Source of the DNA: a virus
Lineage: Duplodnaviria > Heunggongvirae > Uroviricota > Caudoviricetes
DNA: 35,244 nt
Reading direction: 5' to 3' (one strand)
IMG/VR virus record: IMGVR_UViG_2740892431_000022
This document shows, piece after piece, positions 1 through 13,297 of this stretch. The translations under genes were made by a program, and so were the position numbers. The notes below the pieces were generated by a model. The model saw only the letters and a list, made by a program, of their open reading frames with translations, was not told where the DNA came from and ran no database searches. The first letter of the stretch is position 1. Every line of letters begins with the position of its first letter.

Positions 1-751
1 GTGCAGCACGAGACAAAAATGGAAAACCAGAGCTGGTTGAAAAAACTCGCACGCCGCCTGGGGCCTGGTCATATCGTTAATCTCTGCTTTATCGTGGTAT
101 TGCTTTTTTCCACCTTGCTCACCTGGCGTGAAGTGGTGGTGCTGGAAGATGCCTATATCTCCAGCCAGCGTAATCATCTGGAAAACGTAGCCAACGCGCT
201 CGATAAGCATTTGCAGTATAACGTCGACAAACTGATCTTTTTGCGTAATGGCATGCGCGAAGCTCTCGTGGCGCCACTGGATTTCACCTCTCTGCGTAAT
301 GCCGTAACCGAGTTCGAACAGCATCGCGACGAGCACACCTGGCAAATCGAACTCAACCGACGGCGCACCCTGCCAGTCAATGGCGTATCGGATGCATTAG
401 TCAGCGAGGGGAATCTCCTGTCTCGCGAAAATGAAAGCCTCGACAATGAAATTACCGCTGCACTGGAAGTTGGTTACTTGCTGCGACTGGCGCACAACTC
501 CTCGTCGATGGTTGAACAGGCGGTGTATGTCTCGCGTGCTGGATTTTACGTTTCGACGCTGCCGACCTTGTTTACGCGCAATGTACCAACGCGTTATTAC
601 GGCTATGTCACCCAACCCTGGTTTATCGGCCATTCACAACGAGAAAATCGTCACCGCGCGGTACGCTGGTTCACTTCGCAACCGGAACACGCCAGCAATA
701 CTGAACCGCAGGTTACCGTCAGTGTTCCGGTAGACAGTAATAACTACTGGT
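1..751 (+). pseudogene. dgcQ: 5' fragment of a diguanylate cyclase sensor gene (DgcQ/YedQ-like), interrupted by prophage insertion
   Basis: N-terminal TM helix plus periplasmic domain matching my recollection of E. coli DgcQ up to ...VPVDSNNYW; the frame then runs into 13 unrelated codons ([13 protein letters not shown]) and a stop at 790-792; no second TM or GGDEF domain. Identity is recalled, not searched. Confidence 0.6.
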
Positions 752-800
752 TGATCAGACATGAGATAAATGAAGGGGGATCCGTGAGATAAATAACGAA
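752..800. repeat. Prophage terminal region with two direct copies of TGAGATAAAT (762-771, 785-794); candidate transposase-binding sites
   Basis: Direct 10-bp repeat spaced 23 bp immediately inside the putative end; a looser third copy GATAGATAAG lies at 858-867. Confidence 0.45.
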
Positions 801-1112: not shown

Positions 1113-1746
1113 TCATTCATCGTTCGTTGCACGAACGCGCCTGATCTCCACTCTGGCAATCTGATCTGCTGGAATATAGGTTGCCAGAGCTCCCCAGTAC
1201 TTATCAACCACGCCTTTATACTCTTCCCATTCGTTACTTCCTGAAGGGCTGCTGTGCGTGACGTAAAGAACCATATCGCCTTTATTTCCCAGGGTAAACG
1301 GACCGTTAGGCCACTCTTCAAAGTTCCCTGGCAGCCGTGACATCATACCGGAACCATCGCGAAGAATCACTCTGACCTCGGTGACGCTGAAGCCTGTTTG
1401 ATCAAACATTGCCTGCCATGCTGAGCTGGTATTGTCAGACCATGAAATATCATTATTCCACAGTAATCTGTACATCCATTTGCGACCGTACCTGCGCCAC
1501 CACGCACCGCATGTAACGGCACACAGAAGTGCTGGGGGGGTTGCCAGCCAGGCATTCAGACCTGCCCACATAACAGCCTGGTAAGCCATCATTGCTGTCA
1601 GGCCAAAAATCAGCGAAGAAAAAGTCACCTCAATGGGTTTGTGGTGATCCTTCAGCCCCACATTCGCAATAAAATACCCAATATAGCCACTGGTCAGGGT
1701 CACCAGTGTTGCCCATGGCAGATTTAATAACGAAACGTCAAACATA
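1113..1746 (-). CDS. Polytopic membrane protein (about 3 TM helices plus a roughly 110-aa C-terminal domain), cargo gene at the prophage end
   Basis: ORF 1113..1823; start assigned to the ATG at 1746 (MFDVSLL...) preceded by GGGAGA; hydrophobic helices LPWATLVTLTSGYIGYFIANVGL, VTFSSLIFGLTAMMAYQAVMWAGL and WLATPPALLCAVTCGAWW; no family recognised. Confidence 0.7.
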
Positions 1747-1780
1747 TTTTCTCCCTGCATCCTGAATATTACATAGAGAG

Positions 1781-1813
1781 CATAAAAAAAGCACGGTAAA
1801 GGGTCTACCGTGC
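1781..1813 (-). terminator. Rho-independent terminator downstream of the Mor-like gene
   Basis: On the minus-strand RNA: 8-bp stem GCACGGUA/UACCGUGC (1792-1799 with 1806-1813), 6-nt loop, then a run of 7 U (plus-strand A-run 1785-1791). Confidence 0.7.
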
Positions 1814-1859
1814 TCTTATACAATAAGGAGATTTTTGAAAGGACTTTAACAAGCAGGAA

Positions 1860-6887: not shown

Positions 6888-8657
6888 TCAGTTGCCGTTA
6901 ACAATGCTGATAACACTGCTGCGTGCCGGCGTGGTCAGCGTGGCCATGACTTCATCCAGTGCAGCTTCCGGTACGCCGTCCGGGTACTGTGCCGTTAACT
7001 GGCGGTAATGTTCCGGCGTCCAGGTAAGGCCGTCGGCGCTGAACTTATCGCGCAGGGCTTTCGCGGCCTCCACATGAGTCATGGGACGTTGTTCAGTGCG
7101 CGGCCCGCGTACGTCAGAGGCCTGACCACGCTTCGGCATATAGGCCGGAAGTGTGGTGTCGTCGATATGTTTATACGGGTCAAGCCGCCCGCCGAACGGC
7201 AGCGCCTTCGCCTTGCGTGCGGCGGCTGCATCTGCGGCGTTGTCTGTACCGGTAACCAGCGCTTCAGTTTCTTTTGCCGCCATCTGTGCCGAGGTTTCCG
7301 GCAGGGCTTTGTAACTTTCGCCAAATACCGCCGCGCCTTCAGCAAAGCCAAACTCGTTCTTTCTGACCTCTTCGACCAGGAAGAACGTCTCGTGGCCGTC
7401 CTCACCGGTCAGAACCACCTGTGCCACATCGCTGCGCCATGGGTTACGGGTAATCATCAGTTTTTCACCAACCAGTACGCCCGGTACCGTTGATACGTCA
7501 AATTCAGTGCCCCGGAACGAGACACGAAGTTTTGGCGTGACTTTGCGGAGTTCTGGTGCCGCCACAGCCAGTTCACGACATACCTCAACGGAAGGCGCTT
7601 TTTTCAGCTGCTCAGCAGTAATCTTCAGCCAGATATCCGTGCGGGTTTTACCGTGGCGGCTGTGAACAGCCGTGGCGTTAAAGTGGCTGCGCCATTTCGC
7701 GGCCAGCGCGTTGAGTTCTTCCAGACTGTGAACCGGCCGGAACTTCAGCCCCGGCTCCAGCTTGCGTTCGATAATGTCACGCGCCTTTTCCACCTGTCCG
7801 GTGGCGCGGGCGTTATGCGGCTTGTGCGCTATCAGGTCGATGCCCAGTGAGCGGCACATGTTTTTCGTCATACCCGCGGTGTTTGCCGAGCCGGGGTCGA
7901 GATAGAGTATTTTCGGCACGCCGTGCAGCACGTCTGCGCCGCCACGCTCCTGCATGGCGTTGATAAGCACAGAACACAGGTTCTCACCTGATTCCGCGCC
8001 CGTCACATACTCAACGTAAATCCAGCCGCTGGCATGGTCGGTAATCTCGTAACTCCACACGCGGTCACTGGCGATACGGGCAAGGTTAGCGGGCTTGTTC
8101 TTGTAGAACTTCGCGCTGTCCATCACCTGCAGCCCTTTATGTCCATTGCTCAGGTAGTAAAGCGTGCAGAGTGAGGCGTCAATCTGCCAGACATGATTGG
8201 GATGCAGACTGGCCACTTCGGTATGTGGTGCAGGGGCATCCAGTTGTTCCGGGTGCAGGCCATAGTTACGCAGAGCACGGCTGATGGCATCTTCAGACAA
8301 CGGGAAAAACTCACTGGTGGTTTCATCTGTTCTGCCTGCGGTGATAAAGCCGTTAGCCCGCAGGGTTTCCACTGCATCTGCGATGGAATAGAGACGCTTA
8401 CCGTTCTTGCGGGTGGCCTCACGCAGTGTGGCAGATATCAGCGCGGCTTCGTCGCGGGTCAGGGCGCTGCGCCCGGCATCGGCGCGTTTTTTGCGTTTAT
8501 CAGTCACAGAGACCTCCTTCAGCCTGCGCAGCAGAGTGGCGCGGGACATGCCAAGTTCAGCACAGGCAGCGTCGTATATTGCACCGCGTTTACCATGCCC
8601 CGCGTCACGTGCCGCGCGGGCGACATAAACCAGTCGTTCAGTCAGGGCAGCATTCAT
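6888..8657 (-). CDS. Mu-type DDE transposase A
   Basis: 589 aa; N-terminal DNA-binding region, central rve-like core (...HVWQIDAS..., ...LYLDPGSANTAG...) and C-terminal region; GGAGG ribosome-binding site; immediately upstream of B. Confidence 0.92.
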   Translation of the reverse strand: MNAALTERLVYVARAARDAGHGKRGAIYDAACAELGMSRATLLRRLKEVSVTDKRKKRADAGRSALTRDEAALISATLREATRKNGKRLYSIADAVETLRANGFITAGRTDETTSEFFPLSEDAISRALRNYGLHPEQLDAPAPHTEVASLHPNHVWQIDASLCTLYYLSNGHKGLQVMDSAKFYKNKPANLARIASDRVWSYEITDHASGWIYVEYVTGAESGENLCSVLINAMQERGGADVLHGVPKILYLDPGSANTAGMTKNMCRSLGIDLIAHKPHNARATGQVEKARDIIERKLEPGLKFRPVHSLEELNALAAKWRSHFNATAVHSRHGKTRTDIWLKITAEQLKKAPSVEVCRELAVAAPELRKVTPKLRVSFRGTEFDVSTVPGVLVGEKLMITRNPWRSDVAQVVLTGEDGHETFFLVEEVRKNEFGFAEGAAVFGESYKALPETSAQMAAKETEALVTGTDNAADAAAARKAKALPFGGRLDPYKHIDDTTLPAYMPKRGQASDVRGPRTEQRPMTHVEAAKALRDKFSADGLTWTPEHYRQLTAQYPDGVPEAALDEVMATLTTPARSSVISIVNGN

Positions 8658-8660
8658 TGG

Positions 8661-9575
8661 TTATGCCTCCAGCCCGTTAATCTGTGGCGTCGGCTCAGTC
8701 AGCCATGAAGGCGCTGCATTGCCTGTTGGCTCGTCCGGCAGGTCAAATGTGGAGCGCAGGCTACGCGCTGTGCTTTCCAGTTGACAGACCAGGCCTGCCA
8801 TGAAGTCTCTGGGGGTATCAATCATGTTTTCAGCACAATATGCGCACAGCGTCTCAAAAGCGCTGGACAGTCGGACGGCGATAGCAGATTCCGCCTCAAC
8901 CGCTAATGCTGTTACTTCCGCCCGCAGCTTCTTAACCTCCTCATCAGGCTCAGGCGGCTGAATACGGGATTTCTTCTCCAGTCTGGTGGAGAGTGAATCT
9001 ATTTTTTCATTTTTGTCGGCGAGTACGCGCTGTTGTGCTGCGTTGGTTTCGCGCGCTTCGCGCAGGGCCTGACGCAATTCACGTACTGACATGCGATCAA
9101 CGTCGTCAAGCGTCAGGCCGGCAACTGTGCCGCCGTCGGCCAATTCATCAAGTTCTTCATTATCCAGAACCATCAGGTCGTACAGTTTGGCTTTCCCCAA
9201 AACGCTCAACGTTGAGCGTTTTGTTGGCTCATCACCTTCTCCCAAAAACTTCATACTGGCTTGCATCATGCGGCGAGCAACTTGTGGTGCAAGTCCGAGT
9301 TCATTTTCTAAAATGTTTGTAAAATCACCGTGTGGCTCATTTTCTTTTAAGATGATCAGCCGCTTACCCGCTTCCAGCATAGATTCAGCACTCTGCGCCA
9401 TATAAAAACGTGCTTCGTGAACAATGCGATCACGTTCATAAGGCAGTCCATCACCAAACTGCTGCATAATTTCCATGCGATGCTGTGTCATAGCGTTCAA
9501 ATTGACATTGATGTTATCTGACAGCGGAACCTCAACATTCAGTTCAGTGTTAACGGGTGATTTGGTGCGTCCCAT
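8661..9575 (-). CDS. Early protein, acidic with a predicted coiled coil (304 aa), function unknown
   Basis: AAGGAG ribosome-binding site; lies between the regulators and A; no confident family assignment. Confidence 0.7.
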   Translation of the reverse strand: MGRTKSPVNTELNVEVPLSDNINVNLNAMTQHRMEIMQQFGDGLPYERDRIVHEARFYMAQSAESMLEAGKRLIILKENEPHGDFTNILENELGLAPQVARRMMQASMKFLGEGDEPTKRSTLSVLGKAKLYDLMVLDNEELDELADGGTVAGLTLDDVDRMSVRELRQALREARETNAAQQRVLADKNEKIDSLSTRLEKKSRIQPPEPDEEVKKLRAEVTALAVEAESAIAVRLSSAFETLCAYCAENMIDTPRDFMAGLVCQLESTARSLRSTFDLPDEPTGNAAPSWLTEPTPQINGLEA

Positions 9576-9585
9576 TGATTACTCC

Positions 9586-9894
9586 TTACAAACGACTACC
9601 TGAAATAACTCGTTGGTTGATTTCGTTAATACGATCCTGTGCACGCGCCATCTCGTGACTGTGAGCCATGGCGATCTGTAGTAACTGGATTCCCGGTGCG
9701 AAACGTCCGTTCTCTAATTTCATGGCCAGTCCCTCTTCAATAAGGGTATTAAGTGCTCGATTGATATTCGCCGGGGACTCCCCCAGGGCTGATGCCAGTT
9801 CACCGTTAGAAACACCGTTCAGAGCATGACCGCGTAGAGCTTTGAGTACACGTAGGATGCGGGTCCCAGAACTGGAAATATTTACTTTACTCAT
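9586..9894 (-). CDS. Winged-helix (IclR/MarR-like) DNA-binding protein
   Basis: ...SGTRILRVLKALRGHALNGVSNGELASALGESPANINRALNTLIEEGL... resembles a wHTH; start at 9894 (MSKVN...) preferred over 9957; neither start has a strong ribosome-binding site. Confidence 0.55.
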   Translation of the reverse strand: MSKVNISSSGTRILRVLKALRGHALNGVSNGELASALGESPANINRALNTLIEEGLAMKLENGRFAPGIQLLQIAMAHSHEMARAQDRINEINQRVISGSRL

Positions 9895-9910
9895 GTCACA
9901 TTTCCATTTT

Positions 9911-9941
9911 TGCAATATGTGATAACCTGTTGCATATGTGG
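9911..9941. promoter_or_regulatory. Direct repeats TGCAATATGTG (9911-9921) and TGCATATGTGG (9931-9941), spaced 20 bp
   Basis: Related copies at 10154-10163 (TGCAATGATG) and 10172-10181 (ATATGTGATA) in the divergent promoter region. Confidence 0.35.
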
Positions 9942-9946
9942 AAAAT

Positions 9947-10135
9947 TTATGCCGCATTTGACGTGGGTTTTAATCCCAGTTTTACGGCAATTTCATGGGC
10001 TTTGCCGTAACGAGCTTTGGTCTGTCCATTGAGAACACGATAGACCTCATTGCGGCTGTAGCCGTGTTCTTCGGCCCAGCGGGTAAACGTGATACCACGC
10101 TGACGGAAGAGATTTTTAACTTGTTCGGAAGTCAT
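9947..10135 (-). CDS. ner: Ner-like DNA-binding protein (Ner/Nlp family)
   Basis: 62 aa; ...FTRWAEEHGYSRNEVYRVL...GKAHEIAVKLGLKP parallels the Mu Ner HTH and C-terminal segment; AAAGGAGA ribosome-binding site; first gene of the leftward operon. Confidence 0.75.
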   Translation of the reverse strand: MTSEQVKNLFRQRGITFTRWAEEHGYSRNEVYRVLNGQTKARYGKAHEIAVKLGLKPTSNAA

Positions 10136-10182
10136 TGTTGTCTCCTTTGTTGATGCAATGATGTTTGTTTTATATGTGATAG

Positions 10183-10211
10183 ATTATGAGAACTATTGTT
10201 CTCATTGTCAA
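10183..10211 (-). promoter_or_regulatory. Early promoter Pe (minus strand): -35 TTGACA, 17-bp spacer, -10 CATAAT
   Basis: Reverse complement of 10206-10211 is TTGACA and of 10183-10188 is CATAAT; about 45 nt upstream of the ner-like ATG. Confidence 0.6.
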
Positions 10212-10214
10212 TGA
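10186..10214. promoter_or_regulatory. Operator-like palindromes overlapping Pe
   Basis: ATGAGAAC-tatt-GTTCTCAT (10186-10205, 8-bp arms) fills the Pe spacer; TCATTG-t-CAATGA (10202-10214) overlaps the -35. Confidence 0.55.
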
Positions 10215-10221
10215 GGTTTGT

Positions 10222-10647
10222 GTGAATTTTGATTCTCTTTGCGCGTCGCGGTTCAAAGCTGAGCGTTCGCGGTTATCACTCAAGCAGGCTGAAGTAGCAG
10301 CCCTTTGTGGCGTTTCAAGAGAAATGTGGGGGAAATATGAACGAGGGGTTGCTGTTCCCGGAGGTGAGTTACTTGCAGCCTTTGCAAGAATTGGGGCCAA
10401 TGTACAGTTCATTCTTACCGGGGAGTCATCAGGTATAACTTTATCACGTGATGAAATGGAGTTACTGCAGCACTACCGGCAGGCACCATTACAGGTCAAA
10501 GGTTCAGTTTTGTCGGCCTTGACTACTGGCTCCTCCAGAGAACGGGCGGAACAGGTTATTCATGGAGATGTTCTGGGGAATGTTATCAAAGGTAACGTAA
10601 CCATAGGAACAGGTGGAATAATGAACAAAAATACCAAGAGAAGATGA
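10222..10647 (+). CDS. XRE-family HTH repressor-like protein
   Basis: HTH ...LSLKQAEVAALCGVSREMWGKYERG...; divergent from the ner-A-B operon; GTG at 10222 has GAGG 5 nt upstream; the ORF-track ATG at 10186 lies inside the operator palindrome (a leaderless start there is not excluded). Confidence 0.7.
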   Translation: MNFDSLCASRFKAERSRLSLKQAEVAALCGVSREMWGKYERGVAVPGGELLAAFARIGANVQFILTGESSGITLSRDEMELLQHYRQAPLQVKGSVLSALTTGSSRERAEQVIHGDVLGNVIKGNVTIGTGGIMNKNTKRR

Positions 10648-11630
10648 GTAAAGAGAAGCAAACAGTTAACGGGGATGTGGGTAACGTTGTCAGCGGTGAT
10701 GTTACCATTCATAACTATTCTGCTGACATACTTCCTTCGGCCCAGCAACCAATTTCGTTGCTGCAAAAACGCGATTTACACAGATTGATGGATGAATTGG
10801 TTGATCTGGGGGAAAGTAAGCGCGAGCTATGGATGACGATCCACACGAAACTTAATACCAAAACAGTTAATGAAATGACTGCGGCTGATTATCATGGTGC
10901 GGTTGAGATCCTTCAGAGATATGCACAACAGATCCAGAATATGAAGGACTGTAATCTTCTGGTCAGCAAAATAATGGCGCTTACTGACCCTGGGTATCGT
11001 CTTGACCGTGACAGATACTGTCTGAAGCATTTCGGTACAACCCATCTTAAAGGCCTAGACAAAGAGCAGTTGCAGGCTGTGTTTGGTTATTTTGATGATC
11101 TGCTGAATATTCGTGATGAGAGTAAAACTCTATCACCTCCATCGGAAAGCGGTGCAAAATCAGTCGCAACTGTACCAACCAGAAGCTGGAAGCCTCATGT
11201 AGTAGTGTTGGGGGGAGTGTTAGTTCTTGTAGCAATATTTTTCGTGGGAATGATTGTGTTCGCTGGTAAATGGGGAAATGCCAAAGCAGTAGCTTCTACT
11301 GAAACCAGCGTTTTTAACATTAAAACCAACGATAAAATAATAGAAGATTCCATCCCCGCACTGCGCAGCATGTTTCCAGGGTTAAATAAGTACTCAGATG
11401 ATTTCCATTCGGTTTCAAGCTACAAGCAAAAAACGGGCTGGCATACCCTTAAATTTACTGTATCAGCAAAGGCATCCGTCCCCGAAAATTATAGTGTTAA
11501 GGGCAAGGTTTGTTACATTAACATAAGCCCTGATGGTAGTTATGCTCGGGTTTTGACTGCTCCATGTCGTTCACTGCTACTTGATCAGCAAAGCACTCCT
11601 GACAGTAAATACCGTTTTATTCTTAAATAG
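10644..11630 (+). CDS. Single-pass membrane protein (328 aa), unknown function
   Basis: ATG overlaps the repressor stop (ATGA); roughly 180-aa N-terminal domain, one TM (HVVVLGGVLVLVAIFFVGMIVFAG), roughly 120-aa C-terminal domain with two Cys; sampled GC about 33-47 percent. Confidence 0.75.
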   Translation: MSKEKQTVNGDVGNVVSGDVTIHNYSADILPSAQQPISLLQKRDLHRLMDELVDLGESKRELWMTIHTKLNTKTVNEMTAADYHGAVEILQRYAQQIQNMKDCNLLVSKIMALTDPGYRLDRDRYCLKHFGTTHLKGLDKEQLQAVFGYFDDLLNIRDESKTLSPPSESGAKSVATVPTRSWKPHVVVLGGVLVLVAIFFVGMIVFAGKWGNAKAVASTETSVFNIKTNDKIIEDSIPALRSMFPGLNKYSDDFHSVSSYKQKTGWHTLKFTVSAKASVPENYSVKGKVCYINISPDGSYARVLTAPCRSLLLDQQSTPDSKYRFILK

Positions 11631-11720
11631 AAAATAACAGCTGAATTACCATGGGATCAGAAAAAAGACAAAGGCGGCATCATGCTGCGTTCTGAAATTT
11701 TAATGTAAAAGGTGATGAAC

Positions 11721-12302
11721 ATGGCAGGGATTCAGGTTATCGCAGGAAGTTTTCCTAAAGGGTGGGCAAGCATGGGGTTCGGTACCATCGTGTTTGCCAA
11801 AAAACCAAAACAAGGCTTTCCTGAAAATATTGTATTAAATCTGAAAGAAGAGCTTTTATCGATTGAACTTGCGGATAGTGAAGAGGAAAACCGTATAGGT
11901 AAGGCGGCAGGCGCAGGTTTGCTTGGTGGATTAATCTTTGGTGGTGCAGGGTTGGTCATTGGAGGTTTGCTTGGTGCGGCGGACAAGACGAAAAAAACTA
12001 TCACTTTTAAGGCAATGTTTACGGGAAATAGGTTACTTCTGGCTAAAACAGATTCAAAAACTTTTGTAAAACTTCAGTCAATTGCTGCTGATAATGCCCA
12101 TAACGCATCTGTAATCAACATGAAGCAAACTAATAGGGGCGATGTTTCTTCTCGTAAACAACTAACAGAAAATCCACAGCAGCAAGACTTACCTGCGCCC
12201 GCTACAACAGTAAAAATGACTGCCAAAGATAAGTTAGAATCGGCTCTTGGGCTGGGAATCATCGTTATAGCTGTTTGGGCAATAATACACTTCTTTTTTT
12301 AG
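11721..12302 (+). CDS. Glycine-zipper membrane protein (about 193 aa), unknown function
   Basis: AAGGTGA ribosome-binding site before the ATG at 11721 (ORF opens at 11712); AAGAGLLGGLIFGGAGLVIGGLLGAA segment plus C-terminal hydrophobic helix LGLGIIVIAVWAIIHFFF. Confidence 0.7.
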   Translation: MAGIQVIAGSFPKGWASMGFGTIVFAKKPKQGFPENIVLNLKEELLSIELADSEEENRIGKAAGAGLLGGLIFGGAGLVIGGLLGAADKTKKTITFKAMFTGNRLLLAKTDSKTFVKLQSIAADNAHNASVINMKQTNRGDVSSRKQLTENPQQQDLPAPATTVKMTAKDKLESALGLGIIVIAVWAIIHFFF

Positions 12303-12304
12303 TG

Positions 12305-12328
12305 CAGCCCTTCAGGGCTGTTTCTGTT
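12305..12328 (+). terminator. Putative rho-independent terminator after the cargo operon
   Basis: Stem CAGCCC/GGGCTG (12305-12310 with 12315-12320), loop TTCA, then TTTCTGTT. Confidence 0.5.
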
Positions 12329-12339
12329 CAGGAGGTATC

Positions 12340-12816
12340 TTAAGGATTATCCGGGGCGTTTTCCTGTTTGCCGTACTTCGGAGACGAACAACATTCTGTT
12401 GGCTGACCGGTGAGTTTACGTAACTCCTTCATGAGCAGCTCCTGATCGTAAACTGTCATCAGTGCCGCAATGGTGGCATGCAGTGCATCGGGCAGTATCC
12501 AGGGTTGCCGGCCCGTGGGGCATATAACATCCAGCAGCTCATTCGTCCGACAGATACGCTCCTCGCCGTATGACAACAGGCCCTGTCCCGTGTATTCCTC
12601 TAGCCTGATCACTGTGCCACCCCGTGGCTTCTGCCAGGTCGTCAGATCTTCGCCATTCATACGGCGCTCATTCTCCACGTCAGCAGCATCGACAATGACG
12701 CTGTTTCCGAGTTCCTGTTTCACCATCTCTTCTATCCGCGCCAGTACGTAACTTTTACCGCTGCCCACAGGACCGGACACAGTGACAGTGATGACCGGAT
12801 TCAGTGTGTGCGTCAT
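12340..12816 (-). CDS. Small P-loop NTPase or kinase-like protein (158 aa)
   Basis: Walker A GPVGSGKS at residues 15-22, then VIVDAAD; AGGAGA ribosome-binding site; opposite strand to both neighbours. Confidence 0.75.
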   Translation of the reverse strand: MTHTLNPVITVTVSGPVGSGKSYVLARIEEMVKQELGNSVIVDAADVENERRMNGEDLTTWQKPRGGTVIRLEEYTGQGLLSYGEERICRTNELLDVICPTGRQPWILPDALHATIAALMTVYDQELLMKELRKLTGQPTECCSSPKYGKQENAPDNP

Positions 12817-12877
12817 ATCGTATTCTCCTCTGTGAATAATTCATCGTTTATCCTGCACATCCCGTATCCCCGGCTCT

Positions 12878-12927
12878 CTTAACGCGCTTTAAAATCCTTC
12901 GCGCCCTGTATTTGTGATGCTGTCTCC
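12878..12927 (+). promoter_or_regulatory. Putative late promoter for the lysis operon
   Basis: CTTAA (12878-12882), TTAAAATC (12889-12896) and CTGTCTCC (12920-12927); the same arrangement recurs upstream of two other late operons. Confidence 0.4.
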
Positions 12928-12946
12928 ACCAAACGAGGAGACACAC

Positions 12947-13297
12947 ATGAAAAACCTGAAAAAATTCATTCCCCCTGTTAAAAAACCTCGCCTCAGCGGC
13001 TGGCTGCTGACCTCAGTGCTGTTGCTGGGCACCATCGCTCTGGTCTCACCACAGCAGCTGCCTGTTGTGATCTACAAGCTGGCACTCATCACGCTGGCAG
13101 CAGTGCTGGGTTACTGGCTTGACCGTTCGCTCTTCCCCAAAGCCCGTCCCGGTCAGTACCTGAAACATGACGACAGGCTGATGGCTGAAGGGCGTTTCCC
13201 GGTACAGACCGGCCTTCACCTGGTGTTTTCTGCTGCGTTAATCCGCCGTGCACTGATTGTTGCAGCGGTCTGCCTGGCTGTTGCGATGGGGCTTTAA
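12947..13297 (+). CDS. Putative holin (3 TM, 116 aa)
   Basis: GAGGAG ribosome-binding site; three hydrophobic helices; immediately upstream of the endolysin. Confidence 0.6.
   Translation: MKNLKKFIPPVKKPRLSGWLLTSVLLLGTIALVSPQQLPVVIYKLALITLAAVLGYWLDRSLFPKARPGQYLKHDDRLMAEGRFPVQTGLHLVFSAALIRRALIVAAVCLAVAMGL

Follow-up and report, generated by a model that had tools for sequence, protein, structure and literature searches.

What does a membrane-protein gene do when it overlaps a prophage repressor gene? This question is raised by a 35,244-nt stretch of viral DNA (Duplodnaviria; Heunggongvirae; Uroviricota; Caudoviricetes; IMG/VR record IMGVR_UViG_2740892431_000022), called the window below. A first-pass annotation had described a low-GC cassette of three genes at 10222-12302, encoding a helix-turn-helix (HTH) protein, a 328-aa single-pass membrane protein (ORF2) and a glycine-zipper membrane protein (ORF3). 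All three genes are present as open reading frames, the first with Pfam matches to HTH_31 and HTH_3. The cassette had been read as acquired cargo, with a membrane signal transducer controlling the repressor as the alternative. The latter is the better-supported reading for ORF2, as the repressor tail and the ORF2 N-terminus carry motifs that co-vary. We interpret 10179-12321 as an immunity region of two separable units, in which, on balance, ORF2 probably binds the repressor tail via the shared motif and controls the availability of the repressor. The match between repressor tail and partner N-terminus is a new observation; the layout itself is already known from gp17 and gp18 of the type phage BcepMu.

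A motif shared by the repressor tail and its putative membrane partner

The repressor gene (10222-10647, plus strand) encodes an XRE-family protein of 141 aa that matches Pfam HTH_31 (E 4.7e-7) and HTH_3 (E 8.5e-5) as well as PHROG transcriptional regulator/repressor families. The HTH lies at residues ~20-42, followed by a conserved helix (77-101) and then the tail. ORF2 (10644-11630, plus strand; phrog_10002) is the putative membrane-anchored repressor partner. The repressor stop codon overlaps the ORF2 start codon in an ATGA at 10644-10647, as initially described, and judged from this overlap ORF2 is translationally coupled to the repressor gene.

The repressor tail contains the motif HGDVLGNVIKGNVTIG (residues 114-129; 10561-10608) and then a basic end, NKNTKRR (10624-10644). 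This motif resembles residues 9-24 of ORF2, NGDVGNVVSGDVTIHN (10668-10715); it is about 16 residues long and rich in Gly, Asn and Val. A hidden Markov model (HMM) of the motif matches the repressor copy with an E-value of 3.8e-10 and the ORF2 copy with 6.2e-11, and the cognate alignment score of 55 ranks first. In the six-frame translation of the window, the motif HMM found exactly these two sites (next match E 5.3) and no third copy, for instance in an early-operon antirepressor. The two coding stretches differ at the majority of synonymous positions, so the similarity is maintained in the protein sequence. Across 18 ORF2 homologues down to 44% identity, the motif does not change (invariant G10, G13-G18, V20 and I22).

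In most motif-tailed repressors, the motif is directly followed by a terminal cluster of Lys and Arg (NKNTKRR, HEKKK, NKKNK, GRKRK, GKGKKRK). The partner copy lacks this cluster, which may contact membrane lipids or DNA or act as a signal for degradation. We also considered a programmed frameshift that would fuse the repressor to ORF2, the frame of which is open from 10596. It was rejected as a general mechanism because there is no canonical slippery heptamer and the genes are 3-35 nt apart in other loci.

For comparison, we gathered loci with the HTH as query (33 genomic and 75 viral, plus loci from contig look-ups). The gene directly downstream of a motif-tailed repressor encodes a protein starting with the same motif, predicted to be membrane-anchored in most loci. 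Other homologous repressor tails read VSGxGNRVAGRDYxE or FNGDISGQFAGNQIINNG. At locus L011, tail and partner N-terminus are the same, NRVAGRDFNENK. The tail GHRFALGDYHEN is paired with the partner N-terminus EHRIALGDYYEH at L081, GQVSAENIYNIG with GQVAANNIYNIY at L075, and HGGQFSTGTINNY with HGGQFGQVINNY at L098. In BcepMu, gp17 ends in EQVFHGSVGQAVKVEGN, and the overlapping gp18, annotated as 'membrane protein', starts with KQEFNKPVGQAIQAGEAN.

Across 10 loci, the alignment scores of cognate pairs summed to 493, compared to 281±43 for permuted pairs, and none of 100,000 permutations reached 493. We extended this to 16 motif classes from beta- and gamma-proteobacterial prophages, each class represented once. 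The cognate partner scored best in its own row in 13 of 16 classes, with a mean of 47.8 versus 22.8±7.2 for non-cognate pairs, and the observed sum was not reached in 200,000 permutations. Residue-shuffled partners scored 20.2±4.4. No matching partner was present for repressors of this HTH family whose tail is helical ('LLDNYR...'; scores 13-30). Because the terminal peptides of coupled-gene products co-vary, direct and specific pairing is the best explanation.

The motif pair was found in Enterobacterales, Pasteurellaceae, Orbaceae, Francisella, Thiomicrorhabdus and Burkholderiales, in Mu-like and P2-like prophages. In integrase-type and P2-like prophages it also lies between the repressor and integrase genes (L003, L011 and L124, the latter being phage 520873). 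The P2-like record L124 (2269-3309) has an AGRDY-type repressor tail, only a 115-aa fragment of a Flk_N partner gene, and a split integrase, which suggests a decaying prophage that lost the partner first. The partner architectures vary, comprising Flk_N plus a transmembrane (TM) segment, a Cys4 zinc ribbon plus two TM segments, and other forms with two TM segments.

ORF2, the positional and architectural counterpart of BcepMu gp18, has the parts given in the first-pass annotation, a cytoplasmic domain, one TM segment and an extracytoplasmic domain with two cysteines. The N-terminal motif is followed by a helical domain of the Flk_N type (residues ~31-158; 10734-11117), one TM segment (residues 185-208 in a hydrophobicity scan; 11196-11267) and an alpha/beta domain (residues ~221-328; 11304-11627) with the invariant C290 and C308. 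A further invariant cysteine, C126, would be cytoplasmic. The AlphaFold2 (AF2) model has a mean predicted local distance difference test (pLDDT) of 75.9 and two confident domains (helical 31-158; alpha/beta 221-328). After the helical domain comes a low-confidence linker and then the TM segment (helix 191-204). The block means for the alpha/beta domain are 83-94, above 90 for residues 231-320. Structure prediction, proposed as a check, thus yielded a usable model for ORF2, with no significant match among solved or viral structures. The N-terminal domain is placed in the cytoplasm because it is related to the N-terminal region of Flk, which is cytoplasmic, and the C-terminal domain in the periplasm because of its invariant cysteines and lipoprotein homologues.

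The helical domain is similar to the N-terminal part of Flk, with a match to NF007987 at E 3.5e-12 over residues 19-147. Its 46.3 bits are far under the equivalog cut-off of 353 bits; ORF2 therefore has a Flk_N domain and is not Flk. Neither membrane protein had been recognised at first. Recent Pfam families appear to cover both: Flk_N (PF27202) is assigned to ORF2 homologues and PH_gly_zipper (PF27000) to ORF3 homologues. These families are themselves uncharacterised.

We found 24 ORF2 homologues, all in Enterobacterales. A profile search of 1.84 billion representative proteins yielded 113 relatives, most matching the N-terminal or the C-terminal half alone. On its own, the C-terminal domain occurs in lipoproteins with lipobox signal peptides (P0029, P0033, P0037). 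It is a separate gene in the same slot in PhotoMu (L006 5802-6245) and Klebsiella KP12_2 (L123 2986-3519), and in one protein (P0068) it is fused to Ltp repeats (PF07553, E 5.5e-28), a known exclusion-lipoprotein family. Because related prophages encode this domain as a free lipoprotein, ORF2 is probably a fusion of a repressor partner with a periplasmic cargo or sensor domain. In PhotoMu from Photorhabdus (L006 5417-6245), the partner is a small protein that combines a Cys4 zinc ribbon with two TM segments, and the next gene encodes the free lipoprotein with the ORF2 periplasmic domain. Such zinc-ribbon partners instead of Flk_N are also present at L010 4421-4780 and L025 4454-4873.

A constant putative operator and a possible route of repressor control

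The HTH gene is divergent from a Ner-like gene, as is BcepMu gp17, which is annotated as a repressor. Between them we located a sigma-70-like sequence on the minus strand (10183-10211; -35 TTGACA 10211-10206, -10 CATAAT 10188-10183). It matches 11 of 12 consensus positions, is the best site in 9500-13100 and, judged from this match, probably serves as the early promoter Pe. A putative operator palindrome (inverted repeat I1, 10179-10212) has its core, GAGAAC-TATT-GTTCTC (10188-10203), exactly in the Pe spacer, and this core has no second exact copy in the window. Among 122 loci, 42 carry the perfect core, always as a single copy and in the corresponding position ahead of the HTH gene. With 0-3 mismatches it is found in all 21 representatives of the tail classes, 33-45 nt ahead of the inferred start, with a distance of 34-35 nt for 18 of them; the consensus is G(A/T)GAAC-N4-(G/A)TTC(T/A)C.

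The operator also bears on the repressor start. RefSeq places it at 10186, giving 153 aa. The GTG at 10222 assumed in the first-pass annotation is probably correct because most homologues begin with MNFDS and because 10186-10205 is the conserved palindrome; the RefSeq start probably reads through the operator. From its position, the palindrome and the BcepMu annotation, we infer that the HTH protein is the lysogeny repressor.

We found 104 HTH homologues. Among the repressors of this HTH family, the recognition-helix region CGVSREMWGKYERG is nearly invariant. Thus HTH and operator are constant and the tail-partner motif is diversified, across hosts from Enterobacterales to Burkholderiales (L003-L122 examined for the operator). 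In this family, specificity appears to reside in the tail and the partner rather than in DNA recognition. This would reverse the usual picture of an immunity region, with the DNA-binding domain and operator conserved and a protein-protein motif diversifying. The constant operator also raises the question of how heteroimmunity works in this repressor family.

From these data we infer a physical binding between the two proteins and a control of the repressor by inactivation or tethering, in response to a signal. Most likely, the repressor would bind GAGAAC-N4-GTTCTC between the -35 and -10 elements of Pe and shut off the Ner/transposase operon. The motifs in the repressor tail and the ORF2 N-terminus would pair directly and homotypically as short beta-strands, and ORF2 would capture or tether its own repressor at the inner membrane, where the repressor may be inactivated, buffered or positioned. 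The supply of available repressor, and hence induction or immunity, would be tied to the state of the membrane or envelope, read by the periplasmic domain of ORF2 or by ORF2 clustering. The hypervariable, co-evolving motif pair would make the partner of each phage specific for its own repressor.

A self-cleavage domain is absent from BcepMu-like repressors, and in the literature searched we found no induction mechanism described for them. The anti-sigma-like topology of ORF2 and its gene position suggest a control device for such a repressor; analogous positions are occupied by immA next to immR and by sinI next to sinR. A co-translated membrane protein with a co-evolving motif could provide a concrete route linking the lysis-lysogeny switch to the cell envelope. 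For such a system of repressor and membrane partner, in BcepMu-like or other prophages, we found no description in a partial literature, and an earlier one is possible.

Several points weigh against this scheme. The loci were gathered by one HTH family and share ancestry, which the permutation test leaves in. Residues 1-30 of ORF2 are unstructured in the AF2 monomer (pLDDT ~42), and the HTH protein is assigned as the repressor by its position, the operator and annotation. Downstream of some motif-tailed repressors (L018, L090) a partner could not be detected, and the partner gene looks degraded in Escherichia phage 520873 (L124); the partner may therefore be dispensable for repression. In KP12_2 the periplasmic domain adjoins a motif-less repressor and thus may be unrelated cargo rather than a sensor. 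Finally, a conditional step has to be assumed, because a co-translated constitutive inhibitor would defeat lysogeny.

A bolder variant, which we regard as unlikely, takes the matched motifs as amyloid-like signalling sequences of the beta-solenoid type. Clustering or activation of the membrane protein would then nucleate a cross-beta assembly that recruits and templates the repressor tail, so that the repressor is irreversibly trapped at the membrane. If so, prophages with repressors lacking a LexA-type cleavage domain would have a prion-like, all-or-none induction switch, and the specificity of this switch, perhaps also of immunity, would be set by a hypervariable motif rather than by operator recognition. 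Such templating would extend the amyloid-signalling principle of an E. coli defence system to the transcriptional control of prophages.

Prophage context, ORF3 and the variable slot

Used as a 3-kb query, 9900-12900 matches chromosomal segments of many E. coli strains, among them IAI39, CE10 and ST131, at 99.9% identity; RefSeq annotates a transposable prophage there. The closest isolated phage is Escherichia phage PhiKM, classified in Bcepmuvirus. By these matches, the window is an E. coli transposable prophage of the Bcepmuvirus type (BcepMu-like). The window opens inside a host gene (1-792, plus strand) whose product has a CHASE7 periplasmic sensor domain (Pfam E 1.4e-94); the prophage end should therefore be between about 800 and 1100. 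The first prophage-side gene (1113-1823, minus strand; 236 aa) is without a family match and absent from PhiKM, whose homology begins at 1900; Mor (1860-2258) and GemA (2230-2721) follow.

The leftward early (transposition) operon starts with a small Ner-like HTH protein (9947-10135, minus strand; phrog_925, E 1.3e-32), the positional equivalent of BcepMu gp16. It continues with an IclR-type HTH gene (9586-9957), a DUF3102 protein (8661-9575), the rve transposase (6888-8657) and, further leftward, an ExeA-type ATPase, Gam and others. The rightward lysis and structural genes begin with a holin (12914; RefSeq start 12947) and an SLT lysis gene (13300). The cassette sits between these two arms, where BcepMu has the repressor gp17 and genes 18-20. 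An Rfam search of the window found no RNA family.

In blastn comparisons, the window is about 96-99% identical to PhiKM across most of the aligned genome, with a short terminase segment at 79%. Identity is 82% over 8771-10187, homology is absent over 10188-12351 and it resumes at 12352. The segment 10188-12351 is therefore a replaceable mosaic module. PhiKM fills this slot with small ORFs, a gene for a Dam methylase and one for a probable XRE repressor of 118 aa. This repressor gene (L002 29435-29791, plus strand) is missing from the deposited PhiKM annotation, and its product has neither the tail motif nor a membrane partner. At the right junction of the swapped segment, the 3' end of a gene for a 158-aa P-loop protein (12340-12816, minus strand) is cut. 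The protein matches positions 1-157 of 242 in phrog_3787, an uncharacterised phage family, and in PhiKM the gene is complete, encoding 242 aa. The protein is called 'ABC transporter ATPase' in RefSeq, which is unsupported; its Pfam matches to NTPase families are confined to the Walker A region.

A gene-neighbourhood comparison, suggested as a check, confirmed that the slot varies: from repressor to holin it differs in PhiKM, Citrobacter, Serratia, Yersinia, Photorhabdus, Klebsiella KP12_2 and E. coli SF-088. Directly downstream of the repressor or partner, BcepMu-like prophages repeatedly carry genes for small lipoproteins from several unrelated families (L007 5058-5456, L009 5051-5377, L027 4346-4777, L110 3362-3742), a pattern typical of exclusion or conversion genes.

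ORF3 (11721-12302, plus strand; 193 aa; phrog_12025) has a glycine zipper at residues 60-87 and a C-terminal TM segment at 176-193. Its most likely start is the ATG at 11721, with GGTGA 5 nt upstream, not the GTG at 11712. The few homologues carry precomputed PF27000 assignments (P0239, P0240, P0245, P0246, P0249), marked 'weak' on the Citrobacter gene. BcepMu-like prophages of Citrobacter have ORF3 behind another repressor, a CI-type protein of 121 aa, and lack ORF2. Conversely, HTH and ORF2 occur without ORF3 in Serratia (directly followed by Dam), in Yersinia (with an unrelated 249-aa protein) and in E. coli SF-088 (94.7% identical, with two other genes). Of 5,426 complete E. coli genomes, 127 have HTH plus ORF2 and 101 have ORF3. 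As each occurs alone, HTH and ORF2 form a stable pair and ORF3 is an independently mobile moron.

For ORF3, we found no PDB, PADLOC or NCBIfam match and no tblastn match in 50,697 phage records, and its AF2 model (pLDDT 34.6) is unusable. By its position and by analogy to a precedent in the transposable phage Fc02, our guess is that ORF3 is probably expressed in the lysogen, as a membrane protein that serves exclusion or lysogenic conversion. A terminator had been proposed behind ORF3 at 12305-12328. We found a terminator-like hairpin at 12304-12321 (plus strand; 7-bp stem with 5 GC pairs, then TTCTGTTC), the only one in 9500-13100. It lies between the convergent ORF3 and P-loop genes, and its T-run is weak.

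The GC content is 47.2% in the HTH gene, 42.8% in ORF2 and 41.9% in ORF3 (40, 40 and 35% at third codon positions), compared to 58% in the transposase gene, 60% in the SLT gene and 56% in the late region (63-65% at third positions). The low GC noted at first was thus confirmed, but the tract is wider than the three genes. Starting near 9200, it also takes in the early regulators of the Ner-like and IclR-HTH types (46-48%). Because it spans core early regulators, and because the HTH+ORF2 layout is ancestral to the family, low GC is weakened as proof of recent foreign origin.

How far do these observations carry the original idea that all three genes are acquired cargo, with ORF2 and ORF3 acting together in superinfection exclusion or abortive infection and transcribed along with the repressor, in the manner of rexA-rexB and lambda cI? 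All three genes are on the repressor strand, ORF2 overlaps the repressor gene and a single terminator stands at the end. The composition is atypical, the slot is variable and ORF3 moves like a moron. The ORF2 periplasmic domain occurs as prophage lipoproteins, once fused to Ltp repeats, and in Fc02, genes co-transcribed with the repressor exclude phages (PMC9936078). Yet the three genes are not one cassette: ORF2 and ORF3 are unlinked, and HTH+ORF2 is a family-typical immunity layout, with the same overlap and a matched motif in BcepMu gp17/gp18, rather than free cargo. A core arrangement in all relatives had been named as evidence against cargo, and the BcepMu layout comes close to this, though the proteins are uncharacterised and some relatives lack the arrangement. 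Against PADLOC defence models, ORF3 had no match and ORF2 nothing better than E 0.014, and neither resembles RexA or RexB. The idea also leaves unexplained why the ORF2 N-terminus copies and co-varies with the repressor tail. For ORF3 the cargo reading fits well; for the cassette as a whole, an exclusion system seems unlikely.

The binding suggested by the motif match would also be expected if the pair were an addiction-like toxin-antitoxin module. Here, an XRE antitoxin-autoregulator would neutralise a membrane-damaging ORF2 through its tail, and loss of the labile repressor would free ORF2, leading to killing and thereby to abortive infection or prophage stabilisation. The overlapping two-gene layout with the antitoxin first, the palindrome in a promoter, weak matches of the repressor to XRE-antitoxin families (MqsA, HipB-type, PezA) and the small membrane proteins predicted as partners in most loci agree with this. 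However, the prophage is complete, and its palindrome lies in the early lytic promoter, at the repressor position. The cytoplasmic domains of the partners are diverse and not toxin-like (Flk_N, zinc ribbon), and ORF2 matches no known toxin family in Pfam, PADLOC or NCBIfam. The ORF2 homologues seen in context sit in apparently intact prophages, with no loss patterns of orphan toxins. We consider a toxin-antitoxin function decidedly unlikely. That the resemblance has no function at all, being a duplication remnant at the gene junction or a compositional coincidence beside an unrelated membrane protein, is extremely improbable. The motif is short, of low complexity (G/N/V) and unstructured in the ORF2 model, but the divergence at synonymous sites, its invariance among ORF2 homologues, the preference of 13 of 16 classes for their own partner and the low scores of shuffled controls (20±4 versus 48) all speak against this.

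Comparison with known systems

The likeness to lambda cI-rexA-rexB drawn in the first-pass annotation is limited to extra, presumably lysogen-expressed genes on the repressor transcript side of an immunity region. Neither ORF2 nor ORF3 has sequence or architectural similarity to RexA or RexB (Pfam, PADLOC, NCBIfam), and ORF2 has one TM segment rather than a RexB-like multi-pass channel. Moreover, ORF2 is tied to the repressor by the shared motif and ORF3 is independently mobile. Flk, a regulator of flagellar biosynthesis in Salmonella and E. coli, is likewise membrane-anchored, and its N-terminal part matches the cytoplasmic domain of ORF2. In contrast to Flk, ORF2 has a periplasmic domain, the N-terminal motif and a prophage rather than flagellar context.

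In topology, ORF2 resembles RseA-like membrane anti-sigma factors, in which a cytoplasmic N-terminal domain that holds a transcription factor is followed by one TM segment and a periplasmic C-terminal domain. There is no homology, ORF2 would bind a repressor in place of a sigma factor, and no sign of regulated proteolysis was seen, though none was looked for. Another analogue is SinR/SinI of Bacillus subtilis. SinR is a phage-like XRE repressor, and the antagonist encoded by the adjacent gene copies its C-terminal interaction element, so that a heteromer replaces the active oligomer. The control proposed for the window pair is of the same kind, an XRE-type repressor governed by an adjacent-gene protein that shares its C-terminal element. 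The Sin element, however, is helical, SinI is small, soluble and not membrane-anchored, and the system is not a prophage switch. The Pfam scan of the window gave no match to the SinI family.

Amyloid signalling pairs (BASS) have a motif at the C-terminus of one protein and at the N-terminus of the next collinear gene product (bioRxiv 10.1101/2020.01.06.895854), and one such pair, the E. coli Bab/Agp of the abortive-infection (Abi) system BASS11, was shown to work in prophage defence (10.1101/2024.11.07.622273). The window pair shares with them the C- and N-terminal motifs on collinear, often overlapping genes, the many motif families that match within pairs and the short, beta-prone strands punctuated by Gly; Bab/Agp is likewise in an E. 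coli prophage. It differs in lacking an NLR/STAND or TPR sensor and a Bell/HeLo-type pore-forming effector, and here a DNA-binding repressor carries the motif at its C-terminus and a membrane protein carries it at its N-terminus. The motif is also shorter than the ~25-residue BASS11 core, and any fibrils or templating would be hypothetical for this pair.

The closest counterpart is BcepMu gp17/gp18. The recognition-helix sequence of gp17 is unlike that of the window repressor, and gp18 has no Pfam match, including Flk_N, and only a short periplasmic tail. For neither pair did we find a functional characterisation in the partial literature searched. Both hallmarks of a Bcepmuvirus-type immunity module were found in the window, an XRE gene divergent from the Ner-like gene and an overlapping, motif-matched membrane partner. 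In both phages, the pair stands upstream of the holin and SLT lysis genes and combines an XRE HTH repressor, a 4-nt overlap and a downstream single-pass membrane protein whose N-terminus is matched by the repressor tail.

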